Source: Prorocentrum cordatum (Eukaryota). From it: 64,000 nt of DNA. Below are positions 5,533-56,962 of this stretch, in pieces. The stretch is from positions 186,001-250,000 of the forward strand of contig CAUYUJ010000148.1 of the NCBI GenBank assembly GCA_963575745.1, given 5' to 3'. The position numbers were made by a program, and so were the translations under genes. The notes beneath the pieces are model-generated. The model ran no database searches. It saw only the letters and a program-made list of their open reading frames with translations, and was not told the origin of the DNA. How positions within the stretch are numbered: position 1 is the first letter of the stretch; each line of letters begins with the position of its first letter.

Positions 5533-6109
5533 CACCAATTCCACTGGCGGGCACATGTACGCCCACGGAGAATTGTCCGCCCGTTCAGGCTTGCCCGCCT
5601 GTCTAAGCCAGCCGCCCCCCGCAAAGAGAAATAATCCCCCCAAAGGGGTGTGATCGACGACAAAACGGGCGGGTATCGAGGGTATGGGGAACTCGTTTTG
5701 AATGGCACGCGGGCAAGTAAGAGCGACCAGTGTTAGACTGATTGGTGTTGTTATTGTTGTTGTTTCTGACCTCCTGTGTTGCCCCCCCTCCGAAGCACAT
5801 CGCGTTTTGCAATTAAAGTTTTGCTTTCGGGGCTCGCACCCAGTTTATCACAATGGAAATTGATGGGGTCACCGTGGCCACCCATGGGGGGCATCCCGTG
5901 CCATCTTGCTGGCTCTTGCGAATCGACGCTAAATGCCGCTAGTTGCGCGCTAACAAGTTGACGCTAAACCGACTCTGAATCTCACCCGCCCTTTGGGCGC
6001 AGGTGGGCTAGCACGTTTCCAGTTCCAACCTTTTTCTTCTCCCTGTTCGGGGGATTTACCCCCCCACCCCTTCCTGGGTCTGGACGCGCCCCCCGCGATG
6101 TGTAAGAGC

Positions 6110-6560
6110 GTCCTGTCTGGCCCAAGATAATTCCAAGAGGGCGTTCGGTAGCCCAAAGGTGGCCTCCAAGATCGCCCAAGATACCTCAAAATCGGTCAAG
6201 ACAGCCTCCGACACGCGTACAAGAGGTTTCAAGACGGCCCCGAGACGGTTTCAAGTGTCCTCCGATCCCTCCAAGGACCCCCCCCCAAAGGCCAAAATCC
6301 GTTAAATATCTAAGGGGGATCAATGTGTTTGGGCCTTCTCGCTTGTTCGCCTCTTATGGGCCCTTGAGGCCTCAAGATGGCCCTAAGACGGACTGAGGTA
6401 GCCCCAAGAGGCACCCAAGAGGAGCGCCCAAGAGCGCCCCAGGAGCGGGCCAGTACGGCCCCAAGACAGCATTGTTGAACCTCCGAGTGGGCGACGGGAA
6501 CTATACCCCCCCGTGGCGCCAAATGGCGCCCCAGAGGGCCCCATGATGGCGCTCAAATGG
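6110..6560 (+). repeat. Degenerate GGCCCCAAGA-type dispersed satellite block
   Basis: Repeated CCAAGA/GGCCC units. Similar blocks lie at about 2340-2500, 3070-3260, 10130-10330, 11075-11600, 13590-14085 and 49960-50320 (+), and 43060-43320, 44880-46130 and 48480-49260 (-). Confidence 0.8.
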
Positions 6561-35660: not shown

Positions 35661-36569
35661 CAGCACGTAGTCCCGCGCGACTATGGTCATGGGCGGGAGG
35701 TCATGCCAGGCGCCCCCTGCACCGCTCGCCCAGAGCCGTGGGTCTGAGCCCCCTTGCATGTCAGGGTGAACCCAGAGGTCCCTCAATTCCTTCATCAGCA
35801 CCTTCATGGCGGCATCGCCTGCCACTGGGAGGCCAGGGTCGCTCTCGTCGTCCTCGCGCGCGATCGCCGTCGACGGGATTAGGCTGCCATCCTTGATGCA
35901 GCGGCGTGCCTTCTGGCCTCCTGACTTGGTGGCCGCTTCCTGTGCTCACTCTCCCCATTCCTTGCTGCGCTTGGCCTTGCCCCTCCTCTGGATGGAGACT
36001 ACGTGGTCGTGGAGGTCGACCAGGAGGGCGCGGTAGTCGTGCAAGTCCAGCTCCTGGAGTGCGCGCGCACTGGCATTCTGGCCCCAGGCAGCGAGCGGCC
36101 CAGACGCCGGCCACTCCGCCTTGTCGAAAACGAACGCGCGCACTCACCGGATCTGGCGCTCAAAGCGAGAGAACCTGACCCAGACGTTGTCCGACTGGTG
36201 CCCACGCAGAAAGGCCGCCTTCCTGCAAGATGCTAGCAGGCCGGCCCACTTGCGGCACTCGGCGCTGGACGTCTCCTTCAGCCCACTCCTGGATCAGGGG
36301 AACAGTCGCCGCCTGCAGGCTTCTGCCTCTGGCCACTCTGCACCTCTTGTGATCTTCCAGCTGGTGAATCCTCCCAAGGTAGTCCTCTGCCATGGCATGC
36401 CAGAACTTAGAGGCTTCCTCAACATCAGTGAGTCCAGCCCTTGAGCACCATGGCCATGCGTCTTCAGCTCGCTCGGGCGGCGCTGCCTGTGCAGGAGGTG
36501 GCAAGGCCAACGGGTGCCGACTGAGGTAGACAGCCCTGGTGACCGTGGCTCTCTGGCGCAGGCCCGTCA

Positions 36570-37230
36570 GTTCGATGGCAGTGGGCGAGCGCGGCGAGAT
36601 CGGGGCGTCACTCAGCACCTTGACCGCGCCGACCCGACTGACAAGAGCCCCTGGCACTATGGCGTAGTCGTACTCGCGCTTGCTGCAAGTTGGACTCCAC
36701 GGACGCACGAGAATTCCTGAGGCCTGCTTGGCCCAGCTGGCCAAGTCGTCGGGCTCGGTGTTCCAGTCCGTCAGGATGACCCACGGCCACTCGAGGCTGC
36801 CGACCCAGGACTGCAGGGCCCCAAGCAGCGCAATGGTGTCGCCCGTGACCCCGATGCTGTCCGCCATGTAGGCCGAGACGAAGAAGATCGGGAAGCCCAG
36901 GCACGTGTTAAGCTTCAATGCTCTCGCCTGATGGGGCCCCAGCACACTGCATTCCTTGGGCTTATCGACGCTGGCCGCCGCCATTGCAGTGAGGACCGCC
37001 ACTCCTCCAGAGCTGTCAAGGGGCCCTAGGCCCGTGCCCTGCGCGAGACCTTTGAAGAACTCAACGCCAGCACGTCTCGCCCAGGTCGCCGCCGACTTCA
37101 GCTTAGCGCCTTGCTTGATACGGTGCTCCTGCAAGCCGACAACATCGAACGTCATCTTCTTGTCCCTGCTCCACTCCGAAAAGGCCTGACCGCTTGCCCA
37201 AAAGTTGATGTTGGCCGAAAACATCAAGAG
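36570..37230 (-). pseudogene. AP/EEP endonuclease domain of the minus-strand LINE
   Basis: Within ORF 36160..37776: FSANIN, VVGLQEH, SGGVAVL, VSAY, WVILTDWN, YDYAIV and ISPRSP (the usual His appears as Arg). Confidence 0.92.
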
Positions 37231-39929
37231 CTTGTCGGGAGCCGTGTCCACATCGATGCACTTCTGACCGCCTGCACTGGGGGCAAGGAAAACTCCTGCA
37301 CCTCGAGCTGCACTGACCCTCGACCCACCGACGGAAGGTCGCCGAACACGAGTATCCAGCCCACCTCGCCGACGCCCAGCTCCGCTGCAGACCTGGGACC
37401 CCGGCTTCCCCGCGCCCTCCTCCGAAGCGGACGCGGTCCTGCCAGGCCTGCCTCTCGCAGTCGACGCCTCCGACGGCGACCTGGCAGGCGCCGCGGCAGC
37501 GGCCCAGCGGGCGGCGCCAGCAGCACGCCTGCCAAGCACGGGGCCGAACTCCTCCTCCGCCTCGGTCATGGAGCGCTCGTGCCGCGCCACCTGCTCCTCC
37601 CACTCCTGCGCGTCGGACTGGGCGCCAGCCTGCGCATGTTGTCGTGGTAGTTGGCTCGCGTGCGCCTCCGTGCGGCCCACGCCTCCTCGCAGAAGTCCTG
37701 CGCCATTCTGAGTCGGACCACGCCCATGTTGTCGATGCCTGCCGGCCGAGCAACCTCGGAGACGAGTGGCGTCCACGTACCGTGCATCAACAGGTCAGCC
37801 ACGTACGACACGCACAAGCGACGCCAGTGCGTTGTATCTCCGGCTTCGTTAAGCACTGAAACGTCCTGGAGCCAGAACGTGGTGTAGGCCCTCAGCCTTC
37901 TCTCGAGCGTCATGCGCGCCGACACAGCGAGGGGAAGGGGAAGAGGAGATGGAGGAGGAGGAGGAGGGGGAGGAGGAGGGCGTAGGAGGAGGAGGAGGAG
38001 GAGGAGGAGGAGGAGTAGGAGGGCGTAGGAGGAGGAGTAGGAGGAGGAGGAGCCGAAGGACGGGTCGCCTAAGCGCTTCGGAGAAACCCTCCGTGCTGAG
38101 GTGACCCATTCTTTCCGTACCCATCTCGATGGTCCCAAATCCTGCGCCCAGGGCCGGCGCGCGCGCGCGGGCTTCAGAGCAAGTCCGCCTCTCGCGCGGC
38201 TTCCTCGGCCCTGCCGCCCGCGGCCTGCCCCCCCCGCTGGCAAGGAGGGCGGGGGAGCGGAGGTCAGAGGAGAAGGTGCCGATACCGCTACCCTTGCCTC
38301 GTTTTCCCCTGCTTGGGCCTCATGGGAGGCCCTCGTCACCACGGCTGGATTCGCCTTGTTTCCTCGGGATGAGGGCGTCCACAGTGGCGGCGAGGGGTCC
38401 GCGGAAGTCCACTTCAGACGCGAACGCAGGGACAGTGAATGACCGTTCGCCCCCCTCACTCTGCTTTTATGTGGGGGGCCCAGGCATACACGGGATGCAC
38501 AGAGAAAGGCTGAACTTCTAGAACGCATGCCCACGTTCTATCATTCGTGTAACTGTTGTGCTAGATAATGTGTAGATGTGCAATGAGAAGTTGCAATCAC
38601 TTAGTGGGGCCTGCGGCGGGGAGGTGGCATAAGTGGCAACACCCTTAAGCGCCACCCTCCACTTCCCGCGCCCAAGCAGCGCGTAACTGGCGGAAGTGGC
38701 GAAGCACCAGCCAGCTGCTCTAAGTCCCCGTCTTCGAACCCAGAGCGGGGGTTCTCCAAGGTGGCCGTCAGGTTCCAGGACTGATCCCTGTACCCCTCTT
38801 GCAACGGAGGTCCTGCCGATCGAACTGCTCGACGCGCGCGTCTCGGTCGACGGATACTGCGAATCGGCATCGTGACGCGCGAGCGCAGCAGCAGCGGGAT
38901 GAGAGAGGACGAGGGGGGTATAAAGGAGGGTAACCGTAATAACTAATACTGGCAAGAGGGTGACAGGGCTGAACCGACTTTTGCTGCTATGATTCTTCGG
39001 CGACGGATGAGGAAGAGGAACGCGTCTCGCGATTGGGTGGGGCACGTTCTCCCACACTGGCCCACCAAAAATGACCACACGCGGACGTCAAAGAAAACAA
39101 GAATATAGAACTGTGGCCGCATCCGCTCCCTCCTTCCCTCCCCCCTTCTCATGCTCATCTGACTCCAATTCCTTGTTCACCTTCTGCTGCTGCTCCTCCT
39201 CCAACACTCTTCTTCCCCACACCCCTCATTCGGGTAGACACCTTAGATATAGACAAAGGGGGAACCGGGAACTGGGAGGGTACAATGCGTTGTATCTCAC
39301 TCCTCCTCCTCTCCGCCAAACTGGTGAGAAAGGAAGCAATCGAGGAGAGGACTTGTGCAAAATCTCTACGTGCAGCACCGGCCCCGCTCGCTCTCCCGTC
39401 TCGCGCCAACCGCTATCCTCTTGCCCCCGTTGCGCGGAGACTGGCGATTGGCCAGGTGGGGGAACGCGCAGAGTGCGAGAGAGGGCGTCTGGCAGAGCTT
39501 GCGCCCACCACAGGCCTCCGCGACATCGATCCAGAGTGGTTTTGTACCAATCTCGCCACCTGCCCCCCACACGGTCAGCACATGCAGCGGGAATGGAGCG
39601 GGCTGGAGTGCTGGGAAGCATCCAGAGCTCGGATCGTAGGAAAAGGCCGCATTCCTGTGAGTGCGCCTTTGCCGTGGCAAGAATGTCATACTAACGCGAG
39701 GTAGTCCGAGGGTCTTGTGTGAGTGCCAGAACCCGAGACTCCAGCGGGTGCCTTCTGAGAGCGCAAAGACGCCTGAGGAGCCTCGGATGACCCGTCGGCA
39801 ACCTGTCCCTTCCCCTCCCTCCCTCCCTCTCTCCCTCCCCGTGCTTCCCCATCCCTTCCCTTCCCAAGCCTCCCCCCTCTTCTCTCCATTCTGTCTCAGA
39901 ACTCAGAAGCAATAAATATGTCAGGCGAG

Positions 39930-47689: not shown

Positions 47690-48345
47690 CTATGGCGAAA
47701 CATGCGCATAGTGGTTTCCAATATTTCTGTGGCCTGTGGCCAAGCAGCGCGTTCAGATAATCTGCGCCGCCAAAAAATGCCAGCGCGTGCCTGAAAACGC
47801 CTTTCGCCCAGCTAGTTTTGGTCTGCCTCGGCGTCCTGGGCCCGCTGGCTCTCTCGGCAGAAAAAACAAACTACTGTAATCGACAGTGCCCTGTCTCACT
47901 ATACCACTCCCATCTCGGCAAGCCAATGTCCCCATCCATGCGACCTGCCTCTCCAAAAACATGCAGTTCATGGGCTTAGCGTTGGCCTGTCGCAAGACCG
48001 AAGCCTTTGATGTGGCTGGAAGACGAACAAAATGTTCATGGCTATTGTTAAGCATCTGTTCTGGAACCCGTCGACTTTCCTGGCCTCCGCTGAGGAAGGC
48101 CACAGCGAATGCAGGTTGTAGAGGAGCCTGCTGATGACGCACGCGTCGAAGATCTCCATCTTCCGGACGCGAGACATCCCAGAATGAGACCACACCCGAC
48201 GAAATTGTTCAAATTCAGCTCGCGCGGCACCAAATCGACGATTAAATTCTAAACCTGCCGTCCCGTCCGCCGTGATCGTGTACCCCAGGTAAACATACTG
48301 CCCCTTAGGGTTAATGGCGTCACCAGCTGGCACACTGATGCTGGC
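47690..48345 (-). mobile_element. 3' fragment of an RTE-like LINE
   Basis: YVYLGYTI..EFNRRFGAARAEFEQFRRVWSH..KMEIFDACVISRLLYNL..KVDGFQNRCL and GRRGRPK are homologous to the C-terminal parts at 17590-18090 and 31040-31480. Confidence 0.92.
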
Positions 48346-48479
48346 GCCATCCGTGGAAGATACGAGTCGAACAGCGCCTCAAAATCTAAGCGGGAAGTTT
48401 TCGGAAGGCCTAGAGGTGTCCTTGGTCGTGGAATGACGTTGGCATCCTGAAGGCATTTCAAACCTGCTTTGGGGCTTCT

Positions 48480-50320: not shown

Positions 50321-52165
50321 ATGATCCGCTGACGCTGCCGAGAAGCCTGCCACGAGAGGCACCCACTGCGCTATCCACGCAGCCGCACGCACTAGTAATA
50401 GGGTGGCCGGCGGCAGAGGGCGAAGGCCTTAATGAGCAAAATAACGCCGCTTCCCTGGAGCTGCCCGCGCAACGGGGAGATCCGGAGAAAGGCCAAAATG
50501 CACACCAACGCCATGGAAATTTAGGGACGCATCGGATCGTCGGAATCCCGGAATCGTGTCGGATCGGGCCCGCCAACATCGATATCGAAACGGATCGAAA
50601 TTGACCATGGAGGAGGGACGGGAAGAGGGAGGGGAGGGGAGGGGAGGAGGGGCAGGGGCCCAGACAAACGGAGGATCGAAAACAACAGAAGTTGCGCTGA
50701 TTCTGCGTGTTCGGCCTCTGGGACTGTCAAAGAACGACTCGAACTGAAAGGATGAAAGGAGTCAGTAATTTGGAGAGGGAACGTGAGGGATGAGGAGGAG
50801 GCTAAGGAGGGTGGAGGTGAACAGCATGGTCCAGGGTAAGGAGTGAGGGGAGGAGGAAGGAGAGGGAGGTGGAAGATGGGAGGGACGAAGAAAGGGAGGG
50901 AGTTATGAGGGTGTTCGGAGAACGCGATTAGGACGCCGAAGATGGATTGGATGAGTACAGGAGGCGGAGGCTGTAGGGAAAGTAAGGACACAACATCCTG
51001 CCCAACTTTCCTACCAATGCGTGCGGTTTCGTGCAGAATACCCGTTATCAGCCACATGGTCCCAGGGAGACATACCAAGCCCAAGAATCCATACATCTTC
51101 TTTTACAGTCGCCGTCAACTGCTTCCCCGAAAGTCCACTGCGCATCTCTCACAAAAGCGTCATGGGATCGAGCGAGGCAGCCCACATGGCTTGACATGTG
51201 AATGGCGCACTTACACACGACGAGCAAAGCACCTCTCTGAGCAAGGCACCTCTGGCCAAACCGGGTGCGCCCCCTTCCCCTCCACCCTCGTCTAGCACAA
51301 ACTCAGGAGAGCACCGTACTGGAATCCATGAACCATCGTTGATCTCGCCAGTCAGCTCACCTGCAAACCAGTTGATACATGGGCAACGCTCCCAACCAAT
51401 GCAGCATCACTCAAGGATCAGACTGTCGAATGTCTTGACGGATTGCGCAAGCTACAAATCAACTTGGATTCGACCCCTGATCTCTCGCGCCCGAACTGAC
51501 CGTCAGTGGCCAAATCCCCCCCCCCCCGACGTTCGCAAGAGGTGCCCAGAACTATCCGCCAACACAGGTGACGGTTCGGCATACGCATGCAAGCGCTGAA
51601 AGCCGTCCACGCGGGGCCCGAGAAGATCGAGGTGGAAGATCGCACCGCGTCGCCGATGCATCGGCGAAACCGGGATGGAGGAAGTAGGCTCCAGGTTGCG
51701 CCGCATCGCCCGTACATCGGCGATGCTGCGCAATCCTTGGACGTCATTTCCGCTGGGTCAATCTGTCGAAGCAGAACATGCAGCATAGAGTTACCCATCA
51801 GTCGGAAGAAGAACTGGAGAAACATGAAGTAGGACGGCGTTGAAAATGCATTGGGTATCCGCCCGCCCCCTAAAGCGGACGGAAAAAGGGCAAGCCACTC
51901 AATCGTTGAAGTATGAAGGCGCTTAAAGTATATAGGAATCTGAGAATCCAGAAATACCTACTCAACAACCGATGGGTACACTTTCAGAGGTCCACGCGGA
52001 TTCCTCTGAACGACGCTGGACTCATCTCGCCCAGGCGCGCGGAGCATGCCAGGGGTATAGCCCCCATCCAGGAACCGCTCCCCGACCTCCGAAAGCTTGC
52101 ATTGATTTCGTGCTCTACGACCTCTCTCCCAGCTGATCTCATACTCCTGAAGTAGAGACCTCCTA

Positions 52166-52370
52166 GATGGAATCGGAGTAGATGGTGTCGGAGGTTCTCG
52201 CCGCATCGCAGATAAATCGGCGACGCATCGGAGATGCACCAGCGATGCATCGCCGCCGTGGGCGATGCATCGGCGACATCGACGTGAAAGAGGGCCTCAC
52301 CATCGAGGCGCCTCGGCGATGCACCTGCGATGGGGCGCGATCCTCCGACCCCATCTACTCCGATCCCATC
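52166..52370. mobile_element. MITE-like element / long imperfect hairpin
   Basis: GATGGAATCGGAGTAGATGGTGTCGGAGG (52166) and CCTCCGACCCCATCTACTCCGATCCCATC (52342-52370) are inverted repeats matching at 27/29, and pairing continues inward. Related sequence lies at about 51625-51730. Confidence 0.8.
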
Positions 52371-53099
52371 GAAAAGGCCTAGAACTCCTGAGTGCCGTTC
52401 GGGGACAAGACGTGCAGACACTGTGAGGCGGGGTCCTGGCGAACCACCTGGCGGTCCAGTCGACAGTCGGTGGTTCAGAGATGGGGTCCTAAGCACGAGG
52501 TGCCTCAAACAATATAAATCCACCCTCAGTAGGTGAACGCCACACATATCACCTTTCCCTGTATCATCTTTGCGTCGCAGACGAATCTCCACGAGCTGGC
52601 AGCGCACTTTCGCTGGGCGGCGCGGCGCTGCCACTATCGTGAGGGTGCTCAGGTGACCACGCGCTTCACGCCGATCTGCTCAGCCTGTTGCTGCAACAGC
52701 GCGCGCAGCCGTGGCTGCCGTGGCTCAGGGGCGTCGTGGCCCAGTTATCGGATCTATAGGGCTGCCGTGGCCCAGGGGCGTCGTGGCCGAGCAGCTGGGC
52801 GTTGCCTCGTCTGTTGCGGCTGCGCCGACGGGCCCGCCGGCGCGGGCCCCGCCGGCCCCGCCTGAGGCGCGGCGGCGACCTGCGACGTCACTGCTGCGCG
52901 CCCGACGGGGAGGGCCGGCAAGGGGGAGCTCGTCCCGACCGCCCCTCGCGCGCTTCGCGCGGCCCCGTCTCGCCGCGCGCTCGGGAGCGCCCAGCGCGGA
53001 GATCGCCGCCGGGCGCGAACGCGACAGCGCAAGAGGGAACTGGTCACGAGTGCCCCAGGGCAGTCGTCGCTGGGGCGGAGCGGAGCGCGGCCGGCTCTG

Positions 53100-53975
53100 T
53101 TGGCGAGGCGTCGGGAGATGACCCAGGTCTGCTTCGCGGGGGTCGCTGCCGCGCAGGCGCCGACCTCGCCCATCCAGCAGCTGGACCACGCGGCGGCGGC
53201 CTATTTCCACAACCTGTTTTCCAATGGGGAGGTAGTCGACTGGGCATCGGTTTGGCTGGCCGACCTCCTCTTTTGCGCCCCGCGGGTGGCTCGGCGCTCT
53301 CCACAGCTCCCCCGACCCCGCCGTGCGCTGAATGTGCGCGGCAGGCTGGCGCCGTCGAGGCCCGCCTGCCGCTTTCCTGGACGGTGGTGGCTCTGTTGAT
53401 ATGATCTTGTCTCTCGACCTGGTCCAGTCTGCGCGGCTGGCGCTCTTCAACTTCGCGTTCTACGAATGGCGCCCGTCGGAGCGGGTGAGGCTGCGACGTC
53501 GGGATCTGGTAGCTCCGCTGGGGGGTGGCCCGATTCCCCTGCGGAAGCGGAGAATCGTGCTCGACCAGATCCAGGGGGGCGCGCCCAGCCAGACCGCGGT
53601 TTTCGACGAAAGCCTGTTGCGCGAGAACAAGTTCGCCTTGGTCGGCCGCCTCCTCGAGGAAATCAAGGCTCGCGGCCATCCCGGTGGCCAGAGTGTCGGG
53701 GGCTCGCACGGCCAGCGGCGCGCTCGCTTCCAGCAGGCAGCGAGAGCGCTCCCGCCGCCCGCCCTGCAGCCGATCTCGCCGCGCCAGCTGCGCCGCGGAG
53801 GGCGCCAGCCACGATCCTCGGCGGCGGGCGCGGCGACGCGGGCGCGCGGAAGCGCGGCCGCTGGCAATCGGTCGCCCCCTTCCACAGGCACGCGAAGGTT
53901 GGTCGGCTGAACGAGCAGCTGCAGCGCCTCGACGACCGAGTCCAGGAGGCCGCGGCCGACTGCGCCGACCGATCG
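53100..53975 (+). pseudogene. Tyrosine recombinase (phage-integrase fold, DIRS-type), frameshifted
   Basis: LDHAAAAYFHNLFSNG..LPRPRRAL..RLAP; WRPSERVRLRRRDL (catalytic R, ~53467); PSQTAVFDESL; PRQLRRGG/GASHD (HxxR box region); KRGRWQS..RHAKVGRLNEQL (53853; the expected Tyr appears as His). Confidence 0.85.
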
Positions 53976-54024
53976 TCGTCGCTGACCTTCGTGGCATCCC
54001 AGATCTTCACAATCCTACGGAGGT

Positions 54025-54680
54025 TGGATTTACGTCCGATCATTTTGCCGGGCAGGCCCGTTCATCTGCCGCCTGGACGTCTATTCCCGGTCTCCGACGC
54101 GCCGACGGATCCCCGCATTTGCTGGCATTGTTCGCTTCGGACCGTCTCGCGACCTTCCCAGTCGCACCTTGGCCCGCAATGTTCGCGGCTGGATTCGCCC
54201 CAAAATTCTGAATGCACCGCTGCTTGGAGCGCCGCGCGCCGCTTTCTCGGCAGCAAGCCGGGATGGATAGACGTCTAGACAGTCTCCAGGCGGAGTCCTG
54301 AACCTTCCTGGCCGCGTACTGTCCCAGCCGACGAGGCCAACGAGTTGTCCTCGATCTCAGTGGGCATATTGCGGTTGGCCCGCTCGATGAACATCCCTGT
54401 CGCCATCGAGAATCCCTTTGCCAGATGTCCTTGGCACGTGCCCGCCTGGTCGCAGATTCTTAGCCGCTCCGATATCGATGCAGCTGTTTCGGCTGCGGCG
54501 TGCACGGGCGCACGTGAACCATATTTGTCCCTGTTCATGCGAGAATGTCGCCCCGCTGGCAAATCGCATGTTCGGGCGCCAAGCGACGAGGCTTTACCGG
54601 CGGGCCGCGCGGCTGTATCCGAGCCCACGCTGACGCTCGCGAGCATTGCTTTGCACTTGTTGAACCGCGTCCACGCAAGC
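54025..54680 (+). pseudogene. C5 cytosine DNA methyltransferase-like domain, frameshifted
   Basis: Motifs occur in canonical order over three frames: HFAGQARSS (motif I, 54041); DL...VRGWI..LLGAPRAAFS (motif IV, PC changed to PR at 54232-54237); ANEL; IPVAIENP..PW (motif VI, 54408); C..GKSH; and a late YP motif. Confidence 0.75.
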
Positions 54681-55139
54681 TGCGCCATGGCGTCTGGAGA
54701 GCTTACGCGTCCACGCCGTAAATTAGATTGGGGTGTTTTTCAATGGTGTGAGGGGTGCGCTTGGAGCGTGCGCTCATTCACGTGCTGGGGTCACCCTTGG
54801 GAAAGGCGGTGTTTCGGATGCACCAGTGGAACTTGCCCCTCCCTCCCCCAGCGAGCAGCTTCGCGTGCATGCGCCTTCGTCTCGCCATGACTCTCGGCGA
54901 GATCAGCGCGCAGATTGCGGCGCTGGCGAGTAGAAACCATCTGGCCCGACAAGGGCCAGCGCGAGCATGCGAGCCTCCTTGTTTACTTGCAGCTCGTCTG
55001 TTTCAGCGTGCGAGCGCCGCCTCCTCGAATGCTTCCCGCGGTCTCCAAACGTCTTGCGCCGCCTCTTCCCAGGAGGGGAAATTATGCTAACGGAGTTCCC
55101 CACATAAAGATGTTACGGGGTTCCATTGCTTCTTGTCTG

Positions 55140-56857
55140 CGCTCTGGTGGGGCCTCCCTGGAGGGGTGGGAGGGGCACGAAACCTGATGAATAATATGGT
55201 GTGCGAATACCCTGCCCGCTCTGGTGGGGCCTCCCTGGAGGGGTGGGATGGGAACGAAACCTGATAAATAATATGGTGTACGGATACCCTGCCCGCTCTG
55301 GTGGGGCCTCCCTGGAGGGGTGGGAGGGGCACGACACCTGATACATAACATGGTGTGCGAATACCCTGCCCGCTCTGGTGGGGCCTCCCTGGAGGGGCGG
55401 GAACGGCACGAAACCTAATAATAAAATATGGTGTGCGAATGCCCTGCCCGCTCTGGCGGGGCCTCCCTGGAGTGACGGGAGGGGCACGAAACCTGATAAA
55501 TAATATGGTGTGCGAATGCCCTGCCCGCTCTGGTGGGGCCTCCCTGGAGGGGTGGGAGGGGCATGAAACCTGATAAATCATATGGTGTGCGAATACCCTG
55601 CCCGCTCTGGCGGGGCCTCCCTGGAATGTTGGGAGGGGCGCGAAACCTGATAAATAACATGGTGTGCGGATACCCTGCCCGCTCTGGTGGGGCCTCCCTG
55701 GAGGGGTGGAGGGGCACGAAACCTGATAAATAATATGGTGTGCGAATACCCTGCCCGCTCTGGTGGGGCCTCCCTGGAGGGGTGGGAGGGGCACGAAACC
55801 AGATAAATAACATGGTGTGCGAATACCCTGCTCGCTCAGGCGGGGCCTCCCTGGAGGGGTGGGAGGGGCACGAAACCTGATAAATAACATGGTGTGCGAA
55901 TACCTTGCTTGCTCAGGCTGGGCCTCCCTGGAGGGGTGGGAGAGGCACGAAAACATATAAATAACATGGTGTGCGAATACCCTGCTCGCTCAGGCGGGGC
56001 CTCCCTGGAGGGGTGGGAGGGGCAGAAACCTGATAAATAACATGGTGTGCGAACACCCTTCCCGCTCTGGTGGGGCCTCCCTGGAGGGGTGGGAGGGGCA
56101 CGAAACCTGGTGTGCGAATACCCTGCTCGCTCTGCTGGGTGTGCGAATACCCTGCTCGCTCAGGCGGGGCCTCCCTGGAGGGGTGGGAGGGGCAGGAAAC
56201 CTGATAAATAACATGGTGTGCGAATACCCTGCTCGCTCAGGCGGGGCCTCCCTGGAGAGGTGGGAGGGGCACGAAACCTGATAAATAAATGGTGTGCGAA
56301 TACCCTGAGGCTCACGGATAAATAACATGGTGTGCGAATACCCCCCGCTCAGGAGGGGTGGGAGGGGCACGAAACCTGATAAATAACATGGTGTGCGAAT
56401 ACCCTGCTCGCTCAGGCGGGGCCTCCCTGGAGGGGTGGGAGGGGCACGAAACCTGATAAATAACATGGTGTGCGAATACCCTGCTCGCTCAGGCGGGGCC
56501 TCCCTGGAGGGGTGGGAGGGGCACGAAACCTGATAAATAACATGGTGTGCGAATACCCTGCTCGCTCAGGCGGGGCCTCCCTGGAGGGGTGGGAGGGGCA
56601 CGAAACCTGATAAATAACATGGTGTGCGAATACCCTGCTCGCTCAGGCGGGGCCTCCCTGGAGGGGTGGGAGGGGCACGAAACCTGATAAATAACATGGT
56701 GTGCGAATACCCTGCTCGCTCAGGCGGGGCCTCCCTGGAGGGGTGGGAGGGGCGCGAAACCTGATAAATAACATGGTGTGCGAATACCCTGCTCGCTCAG
56801 GCGGGGCCTCCCTGGAGGGGTGGGAGGGGCACGAAACCTGATAAATAACATGGTGTG
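55140..56857. repeat. 77-bp tandem array, ~22 unit-lengths including 3-4 truncated units
   Basis: The unit is GGTGTGCGAATACCCTGCTCGCTCAGGCGGGGCCTCCCTGGAGGGGTGGGAGGGGCACGAAACCTGATAAATAACAT. Starts at 56390, 56467, 56544, 56621, 56698 and 56775 are exactly 77 apart. Confidence 0.98.
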
Positions 56858-56863
56858 AGGAAA

Positions 56864-56962
56864 GGCATGGTATGGTATGGGATGGTGGATGCATGGTATG
56901 GTATGGTAAGGTATGGTATGGAGTGGCATGGTATTGTTATGGTATGATACAGTATGGGATGG
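56864..56962. repeat. Degenerate (TATGG)n microsatellite
   Basis: Directly visible; it abuts the 77-bp array. Confidence 0.9.

Follow-up and report, generated by a model that had tools for sequence, protein, structure and literature searches.

It is rare for a genomic parasite to seize the silencing chemistry of its host, as do retrotransposons that carry a cytosine methyltransferase of their own. Such elements are so far on record from Symbiodiniaceae, a charophyte, and a small number of algae and euglenids. The best comparison for the element considered here is SymbioDIRS-Dnmt3 (de Mendoza et al. 2018; PMC5890265). That article describes a DNMT domain encoded in Pol together with the reverse transcriptase (RT), a recombinase in a separate open reading frame (ORF), and two architectures with shuffled order. 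The SymbioDIRS-Dnmt3 DNMT clusters with Dnmt3 and methylates CG de novo in yeast, the RTs of Symbiodinium DIRS elements align poorly to Pfam seeds, and RNA methylation was raised as a possibility for the DNMT borne by long interspersed nuclear elements (LINEs) (PMC5890265). In canonical DIRS1-like and PAT-like elements the methyltransferase is a Dam-like N6-adenine enzyme (PMC5890265; 2026 bioRxiv preprint), and in DIRS1 the non-overlapping 3' end, downstream of Pol, encodes the catalytic part of the recombinase (Piednoel et al. 2011, PMC3266345). Here we describe a related locus in a 64,000-nucleotide stretch of Prorocentrum cordatum DNA (contig CAUYUJ010000148.1; hereafter the window, with positions counted from its first letter).

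Positions 53004-54718 (+ strand) of the window hold a full-length, frameshifted tyrosine-recombinase (YR) pseudogene followed, after a gap of 15-60 bp, by a frameshifted methyltransferase-like domain of ~240 aa, in which motifs I, IV and VI follow each other in this order. With a probability of roughly 85%, we regard this locus as what is left of a dinoflagellate DIRS-type retrotransposon, now dead and either truncated at its 5' end or internally deleted, with the recombinase and a C5-methyltransferase-like tail of Pol. The copy is a dead fragment without function, incapable of integration or methylation; it is called a fragment because no remnant of RT/RNase H was found in the window. The closest known kind is SymbioDIRS-Dnmt3, and the element extends this described kind to a new host, the source dinoflagellate being probably Prorocentrum-like.

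An exhaustive phmmer search of 1.84 billion proteins with the frame-0 read-through of 53838-54890, in which the internal stop was written as X, gave two matches, both to a recombinase C-terminus: P0001 (259 aa, 'unnamed protein product [Prorocentrum cordatum]') and the intact P0002 (324 aa). P0002, used as a query, led to a family of 14 proteins (alignment A1), the named members of which are from Prorocentrum cordatum. When all 14 were compared with the whole window by tblastn, a single locus was detected (53076-54083), where P0002 scored E 1e-48. The family profile built from A1 aligned with three colinear pieces of the window, which lie in frames 0, 1 and 0, and the recombinase is therefore read as full-length with two frameshifts. 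Its features, by position in the window, are as follows.

53004..53387, + strand: recombinase pseudogene, N-terminal (core-binding-type) domain, frame 0 (position mod 3 = 0; family profile 15-140, E 7.8e-19; also found by tblastn with P0002 and P0003)
53395..53802, + strand: first part of the recombinase catalytic domain, frame 1, reached via a frameshift near 53388-53395 (profile 147-282, E 1.4e-30)
53467-53484, + strand: recombinase motif WRPSER, in the frame-1 piece
53584-53595, + strand: recombinase PSQT, in which Gln (53590-53592) replaces the family-invariant Lys
53782-53802, + strand: recombinase RQLRRGG, where the family reads YQLRHGG
53814..54030, + strand: C-terminal part of the recombinase, with frame 0 regained through a second frameshift near 53803-53813 (E 2e-17 for profile 287-343; the profile alignment stops at 53984, and the end at ~54030 was set from the comparison with P0002)
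53853-53864, + strand: recombinase RGRW, frame 0
53880-53897, + strand: recombinase FHRHAK, with His (CAC, 53889-53891) at the position of the nucleophile Tyr

The 14 proteins share the conserved motifs RPSE, SKT, YQLRHGGAS, KKRGRW and RY.K.GR. By analogy, we take RPSE, SKT, YQLRH, RGRW and RY to contain the catalytic Arg, Lys, (His)xxArg, His/Trp and Tyr, respectively. The AlphaFold model of intact P0002 has a predicted local distance difference test score (pLDDT) of 88, and Foldseek retrieved 27 structures at E<=1e-3; the matches listed were all tyrosine recombinases (Cre, Tn1549 Int, Xer, lambda Int), spanning the full length of the two-domain fold with Foldseek E of 4e-5 to 1e-2. Judged by this model, the family has the Cre/lambda-integrase fold. 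It shares with Cre/Tre, lambda integrase and Xer the two-domain architecture and, by motif, Arg, Lys, Arg, Trp and Tyr, but identity is just 11-16%, and the first position of HxxR, as read from the alignment, is Tyr and not the His of Cre, lambda integrase and Xer. In sequence searches, the family profile found no recombinase among PDB sequences (a chance Cas5 match alone, E 1.3), and the window recombinase piece gave no PDB match at E<=10 with phmmer, none in a word-indexed search of longer proteins and no usable one in the ESM Atlas. With Gln for Lys, His for Tyr and two frameshifts, the window copy lacks the complete catalytic set and is a pseudogene of a tyrosine-recombinase family member.

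The His in place of the nucleophile Tyr is also seen in the A1 column of 53889-53891 in P0001 and P0003, both from Prorocentrum cordatum; among the remaining 11 members, which include the Prorocentrum cordatum protein P0005, ten have Tyr and one (P0007) has Asp. Either a non-autonomous subfamily spread after the loss of Tyr, or the change arose repeatedly.

Scanning of metagenome contigs with A1 yielded 19 loci (named L with a number below) holding a related recombinase. In a tblastx comparison of 53990-54900 of the window with these loci, the DNA immediately 3' of the recombinase was matched in nine, with E from 6e-12 to ~0.03. In the matched loci this DNA is read in another frame than the recombinase, with an ORF of the type ..FLEVFSGSGR..ATPCNSMSRAR..PLR..VVIENPSTSWLW..DFCAFGAPWRKRT..IAEPYP... 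A profile of three complete copies located the methyltransferase-like domain directly after the recombinase in 13 of the 19 loci; five of the six others have less than 250 nt of downstream sequence. The domain starts between -94 and +47 nt from the end of the recombinase ORF in all 12 loci measured (12/12). Twelve intact copies were aligned (A2), and a profile of these, run against 3044 ORFs, matched two pieces of the window, 54330-54479 (E 1.4e-7) and 54085-54261 (E 4.9e-5). In the profile alignment of the latter, LLGAPRAAFSAASR stands opposite wlgmPCtsfSraR, with Arg at the position of the catalytic Cys. The features of this part of the window copy are as follows.

54044..54076, + strand: methyltransferase-like motif I, FAGQARSSAAW, frame 2 (the recombinase frame +2); weak when taken alone (E 0.3 or worse), colinear
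54085..54261, + strand: methyltransferase-like region from motif II to motif IV, frame 1 (profile 14-72, E 4.9e-5; tblastx to L002, L003, L004, L010 and L015)
54226-54249, + strand: motif IV, GAPRAAFS, with Pro-Arg (CGC, 54235-54237) where all 12 intact copies have Pro-Cys
54276-54278, + strand: TAG which, with a frameshift, separates the motif IV piece from the motif VI piece
54330..54479, + strand: methyltransferase-like helix and motif VI, frame 0 (profile 102-151, E 1.4e-7; tblastx to L002, L003, L006, L010, L011 and L016)
54405-54416, + strand: motif VI, IENP (within IPVAIENP), frame 0
54479..54718, + strand: C-terminal part of the methyltransferase-like domain, frame 2; weak when taken alone (E 0.3-0.4), read by eye against A2, colinear
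within 54479..54718, + strand: CSCFGCGVHGRT, the counterpart of the family motif DFCxFGxPWRKxT
54515-54517, + strand: in-frame TGA in the C-terminal part
54662-54682, + strand: EPRPRKL in the C-terminal part, the counterpart of the family motif (A/Q)(E/Q)PYPxxL
54719-54721, + strand: TAA closing frame 2 of the C-terminal part

The domain is thus complete in length despite its frameshifts and stops. At least two frameshifts were counted in the recombinase, and at least three frameshifts plus two stops in the methyltransferase-like domain; the replaced residues are Lys to Gln and Tyr to His in the former and Cys to Arg in the latter.

Since the stretch is rich in GC (0.68 at 52-54 kb), with open ORFs in every frame of 52500-55300, the motifs might in principle be chance resemblances in DNA past a genuine recombinase pseudogene, the more so as the methyltransferase piece found no match in Pfam, in PDB or in two large protein searches. 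This explanation was tested and rejected, and we give it hardly any credence. The two colinear pieces matched the profile of intact copies with the E-values given above, whereas the next best ORF of the window, on the minus strand inside the recombinase region, reached E 0.13 and the best elsewhere in the window E 2.6. Besides, tblastx ties the pieces to post-recombinase DNA of nine loci, the frame offset of motif I (+2 relative to the recombinase) equals that of the intact loci L002, L004, L006, L016 and L017, and the distance to the recombinase agrees with these loci too.

The preliminary description of this locus, made from the window sequence, had named the recombinase motifs RPSE, QLRRGG and RGRW, all of which lie within the family-profile pieces, and had placed methyltransferase motifs I, IV and VI in order close behind them, as is borne out by the spacing and the profile matches. 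It had noted that neither domain is obvious from any single ORF; indeed, Pfam gave no match at E<=1 for either domain on nine stop-to-stop pieces of the region. The two substitutions from which it had concluded that the copy is dead, Cys to Arg and Tyr to His, are both present, and its assignment to a dinoflagellate agrees with the origin of the closest named proteins, from Prorocentrum cordatum. The two domains are adjacent also in other copies, as it had anticipated, with the counts given above and with the one long exception treated below.

In A2, the residues E5, F7 and G9 of motif I, D31 of motif II, P66-C67 and N131-P132 are invariant. Intact relatives accordingly present the series of motifs I, IV and VI in the order of C5 methyltransferases, and the catalytic Cys is lost in the window copy. 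The Glu of ENP is found in 10 of the 12 copies, with Gly in L008 and L009. These two loci are nearly identical and have GNP for ENP with the other conserved residues kept, which could be a variant active site or a recent inactivation.

The AlphaFold model of an intact domain of ~240 aa (pLDDT 88, predicted template modelling score 0.86) had 45 Foldseek matches at E<=1e-3; those listed were all C5 methyltransferases, the top ones including Dnmt2-type tRNA methyltransferases. All 50 rows of the VIA structural comparison were C5 methyltransferases, with Z of 12.3 for DNMT1 (root mean square deviation (rmsd) 3.9, 220 aligned), 12.2 for M.HhaI and 11.8 for DNMT3A. A Foldseek-independent search of 48,161 chains placed C5 methyltransferases or their close kin at ranks 1-13, with DNMT3B (Z 11.4) structurally tied with M.HhaI (11.1) and DNMT3A at 11.2; in the same search, short-chain dehydrogenases with a generic Rossmann fold start at Z 9.4. 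The margin over generic Rossmann folds is ~2 Z units, and for this reason the C5 assignment rests on fold plus motifs. Fold and conserved motifs together support the predicted domain as C5-cytosine-methyltransferase-like. Against DNMT3A/DNMT3B, M.HhaI and DNMT1, model residues 1-237/249 align to the entire catalytic domain (Z 11.2-12.3, rmsd 3.5-4.3, 190-220 residues), and the order of motifs I, IV (PC) and VI (ENx) is alike. The differences are an identity of 10-16%, ENP in place of ENV, and a Cys/His-rich insert where the target-recognition region would be. This stretch (C..C.....CS.....H..L.G; A2 columns ~186-215, residues ~185-215 of L002) was modelled with a pLDDT of 68-75 and may, by its residue pattern, be a small metal-binding insert.

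Sequence searches for the domain were less informative. The domain profile found DNMT2 (4h0n) in PDB with E 0.022 and motifs I and IV in register; phmmer against PDB with either the window piece or the intact domain gave nothing at E<=10, Pfam gave nothing on three intact domain copies, and the word-indexed search of longer proteins with the window piece was also negative. Viral contigs scanned with the methyltransferase alignment gave 13 pattern matches, none of which was confirmed. In the ESM Atlas, taken as a lead only, the methyltransferase piece fell with unnamed clusters (0.96), and the nearest named cluster (0.86) has PF00145 in 12% of its members. Neither a Dam family match in Pfam, for the intact copies, nor a Dam-like N6-adenine methyltransferase among the structural matches listed was seen.

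A Rossmann methyltransferase-like domain of this kind might act on something other than DNA, as an RNA 5-methylcytosine enzyme of the Dnmt2 kind, or it might be a non-catalytic nucleic-acid-binding module of Pol. The best sequence-profile match and the top Foldseek matches, in which Dnmt2-type tRNA methyltransferases are included, are consistent with such a role, as are the length of ~240 aa, which leaves no room for a long target-recognition domain, the persistent lack of a significant Pfam DNA_methylase match, and the absence of the motif VI Glu from two copies; RNA methylation was also considered for LINE-borne DNMT (PMC5890265). On the other hand, all 12 copies retain Pro-Cys, the Asp of motif II and the residues of motif I, and ten retain ENP, which argues for catalysis as far as residue conservation can tell; in the unbiased structural search the top places go to DNMT3A/B, whose recognition region is likewise very short; and the comparable domains of SymbioDIRS-Dnmt3 methylated DNA at CG when expressed in yeast (PMC5890265). 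We thus consider an RNA-directed or non-catalytic domain unlikely and prefer the C5 DNA methyltransferase-like assignment.

The DIRS-type affiliation comes from the relatives. Homology to RT/RNase H (Pol) was found immediately 5' of the recombinase in all 13 loci having at least 500 nt upstream; RVT_1 was weak (E 7e-4 to 2e-3) and seen in 3 of 16 ORFs scanned. The hallmark of the DIRS order, a Pol with RT/RNase H combined with a tyrosine recombinase, is thereby present in the relatives, and the window copy belongs to the order by descent. In ten loci (L002-L006, L008-L011 and L016) no stop interrupts the methyltransferase frame along the whole recombinase ORF, and in L006, L008, L009, L011 and L016 the same single ORF also bears the RT/RNase H homology, the stop-free bridge between RNase H and methyltransferase being ~430 codons long. 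The +2 frame across the recombinase ORF had no stops in any of the nine loci tested (9/9), against means of 2-21 stops after shuffling of synonymous codons; of 2000 shuffles per locus, none was free of stops in seven loci, 16 were in L004 and 233 in L002, the GC-richest. The open frame is accordingly not due to chance. Conservation is much lower in the bridge frame than in the recombinase frame (for example, 89 versus 331 bits between L006 and L016). The simplest reading of these sequences is that RT, RNase H, bridge and methyltransferase would form a single polyprotein, and that the recombinase gene lies nested within the bridge. The recombinase directly precedes the methyltransferase on the DNA because its gene sits out of frame inside the Pol bridge. 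In this respect the preliminary description, which had a recombinase directly followed by a C5 methyltransferase, was right about the adjoining position on the DNA and has to be revised as to the gene: the methyltransferase forms the C-terminal domain encoded by the Pol ORF rather than a gene of its own behind the recombinase. It had further proposed profile and structure searches, and a search of other copies for PC, ENP and an upstream RT/RNase H. No Pfam threshold was reached, even by intact copies, and by itself the proposed profile search would therefore have failed; structures led to tyrosine recombinases and C5 methyltransferases; the relatives have PC (12/12), ENP (10/12) and RT/RNase H (13/13), and the window copy is without RT/RNase H. 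Its observation is confirmed, and the results support most of its interpretation.

A number of results weigh against the assignment of the window copy to a DIRS-type element with a C5-methyltransferase-like domain. No RT/RNase H was found in the window, either by tblastn of 33 long locus ORFs or by phmmer with 10 Pol ORFs as queries against 490 ORFs of the window, nor did a relaxed motif for the RNase H end occur in it; the retrotransposon origin of the window copy therefore rests on its relatives. In L019 the ~980 nt that follow the recombinase match contain no methyltransferase domain. Among the intact copies, PF00145 was weak in 4 of 12 (best E 0.097), and among the recombinase family three of 14 members gave a weak PF00589 (Phage_integrase) match (best E 0.021), both below threshold, and the exhaustive phmmer search with the frame-0 read-through returned nothing over the methyltransferase part. 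The Gly in motif VI of two relatives and the narrow structural margin over Rossmann folds, both described above, belong here as well. Terminal repeats were detected in one of four loci scanned (L010; not in L009, L011 or L016), and the repeats listed in a window-wide scan included neither a repeat family nor a pair of inverted repeats around 53004-54718. In L010, a 124-nt direct repeat, 99% identical, at 1-124 and 6106-6229 flanks a block of gag-like, Pol, recombinase and methyltransferase sequence, its 3' copy beginning 65 nt past the Pol stop; it could be part of split direct repeats.

An independent, Crypton-like DNA transposon made of recombinase and methyltransferase, moving without reverse transcription and complete in gene content in the window copy, would fit the lack of an RT/RNase H remnant within at least 13 kb up- or downstream of the unit, and six loci with less than 100 nt upstream cannot show Pol. 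We find this very improbable, given the Pol homology immediately upstream in each of the 13 loci with at least 500 nt there. Moreover, the methyltransferase frame is open far upstream and no conserved ATG lies near the domain, which fits expression as a Pol tail, and P0005 from Prorocentrum cordatum opens, as judged by eye, with residues like those at the end of RNase H in L007 before continuing as recombinase. A truncated or internally deleted DIRS-type retrotransposon remains our preferred explanation.

Symbiodiniaceae DIRS elements with DNMT, cited in the preliminary description, are indeed described as SymbioDIRS-Dnmt3 (PMC5890265), and their layout, a DNMT domain in the RT ORF and a separate recombinase ORF, is seen in the relatives. 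Both are dinoflagellate DIRS-type elements with a C5 DNMT-like domain in the Pol ORF together with RT, both have an RT too divergent for Pfam seeds, and both have a short DNMT domain without extra domains. They differ in host (Prorocentrum-like here, Symbiodiniaceae there) and in visibility, since the published domains were named by Pfam (DNA_methylase, Phage_integrase) and neither is significant in Pfam here. A possible further difference is that, in the family described here, the recombinase lies nested in the stop-free bridge that joins RNase H to the methyltransferase. With DIRS1-like and PAT-like elements (PMC3266345), the relatives share GAG, Pol and recombinase content, a Pol of RT, RNase H and methyltransferase, and long overlaps between Pol and recombinase ORFs. 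In contrast to the Dam-like type, the domain here has PC, ENP and a C5-methyltransferase-like model and, unlike in DIRS1, the whole recombinase precedes the methyltransferase and sits inside Pol. A limited literature search on transposable elements or DIRS of Prorocentrum cordatum found nothing relevant, and the family may still have been published.

In the intact relatives, the Pol ORF encodes RT and RNase H, then the bridge, then the compact C5-cytosine-methyltransferase-like domain of ~240 aa. By analogy with these systems, the recombinase would insert the DNA copy of the element, as in DIRS elements, and the methyltransferase, made as the tail of Pol, might methylate cytosines of the new complementary DNA, as proposed for SymbioDIRS-Dnmt3.

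The window fragment and its relatives suggest that elements of this design occur in a further dinoflagellate order as well, and on many contigs of marine eukaryotes; the contigs of the relatives have GC of 0.45-0.66. The family behind the window copy may be a cryptic lineage, and surveys may have missed such elements because they are too divergent for standard domain models. Tentatively, and with more doubt than confidence, we suggest that the relatives form a separate, Pfam-invisible lineage of C5-methyltransferase-bearing DIRS-type elements in marine protists well beyond Symbiodiniaceae, with the recombinase nested in a Pol bridge kept stop-free by selection. If this is true, Pfam-based counts of DNMT-carrying retroelements, including the class of 'DIRS lacking DNMT', are underestimates. 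The worth of the window fossil is as a pointer to the family and its intact copies.

Two sequencing runs shared a small part of the stretch (0.08 and 0.05), and no RNA run was among those listed; contigs from sequencing runs (57-564 nt, with partial coverage) include pieces ~82% alike over 53813-53934. The three inactivating changes (53590-53592 CAG, 53889-53891 CAC and 54235-54237 CGC) would all be of the A/T-to-G/C direction if the ancestral codons were AAG, TAC and TGC, which are assumed; this direction fits a GC-biased decay in a stretch with GC of 0.68. Just 5' of the element (~51500-52450), ORF translations on both strands have a recurring peptide-like unit (..ASPMHRRC.., ..DASP.HRR..), suggestive of a short repeat family, and a tandem array of ~25 copies of a 77-nt repeat (55010-56960) begins ~300 bp past the fragment, the copies at 56356-56850 being 95-99% alike. 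Further upstream, two LINE-like remnants lie on the minus strand: 36163-37794, with a weak Exo_endo_phos match (E 0.0018), and 47971-48378, with a weak DUF6451 match (E 0.0021), the ORF of the latter resembling, by eye, the tail of a reverse transcriptase.

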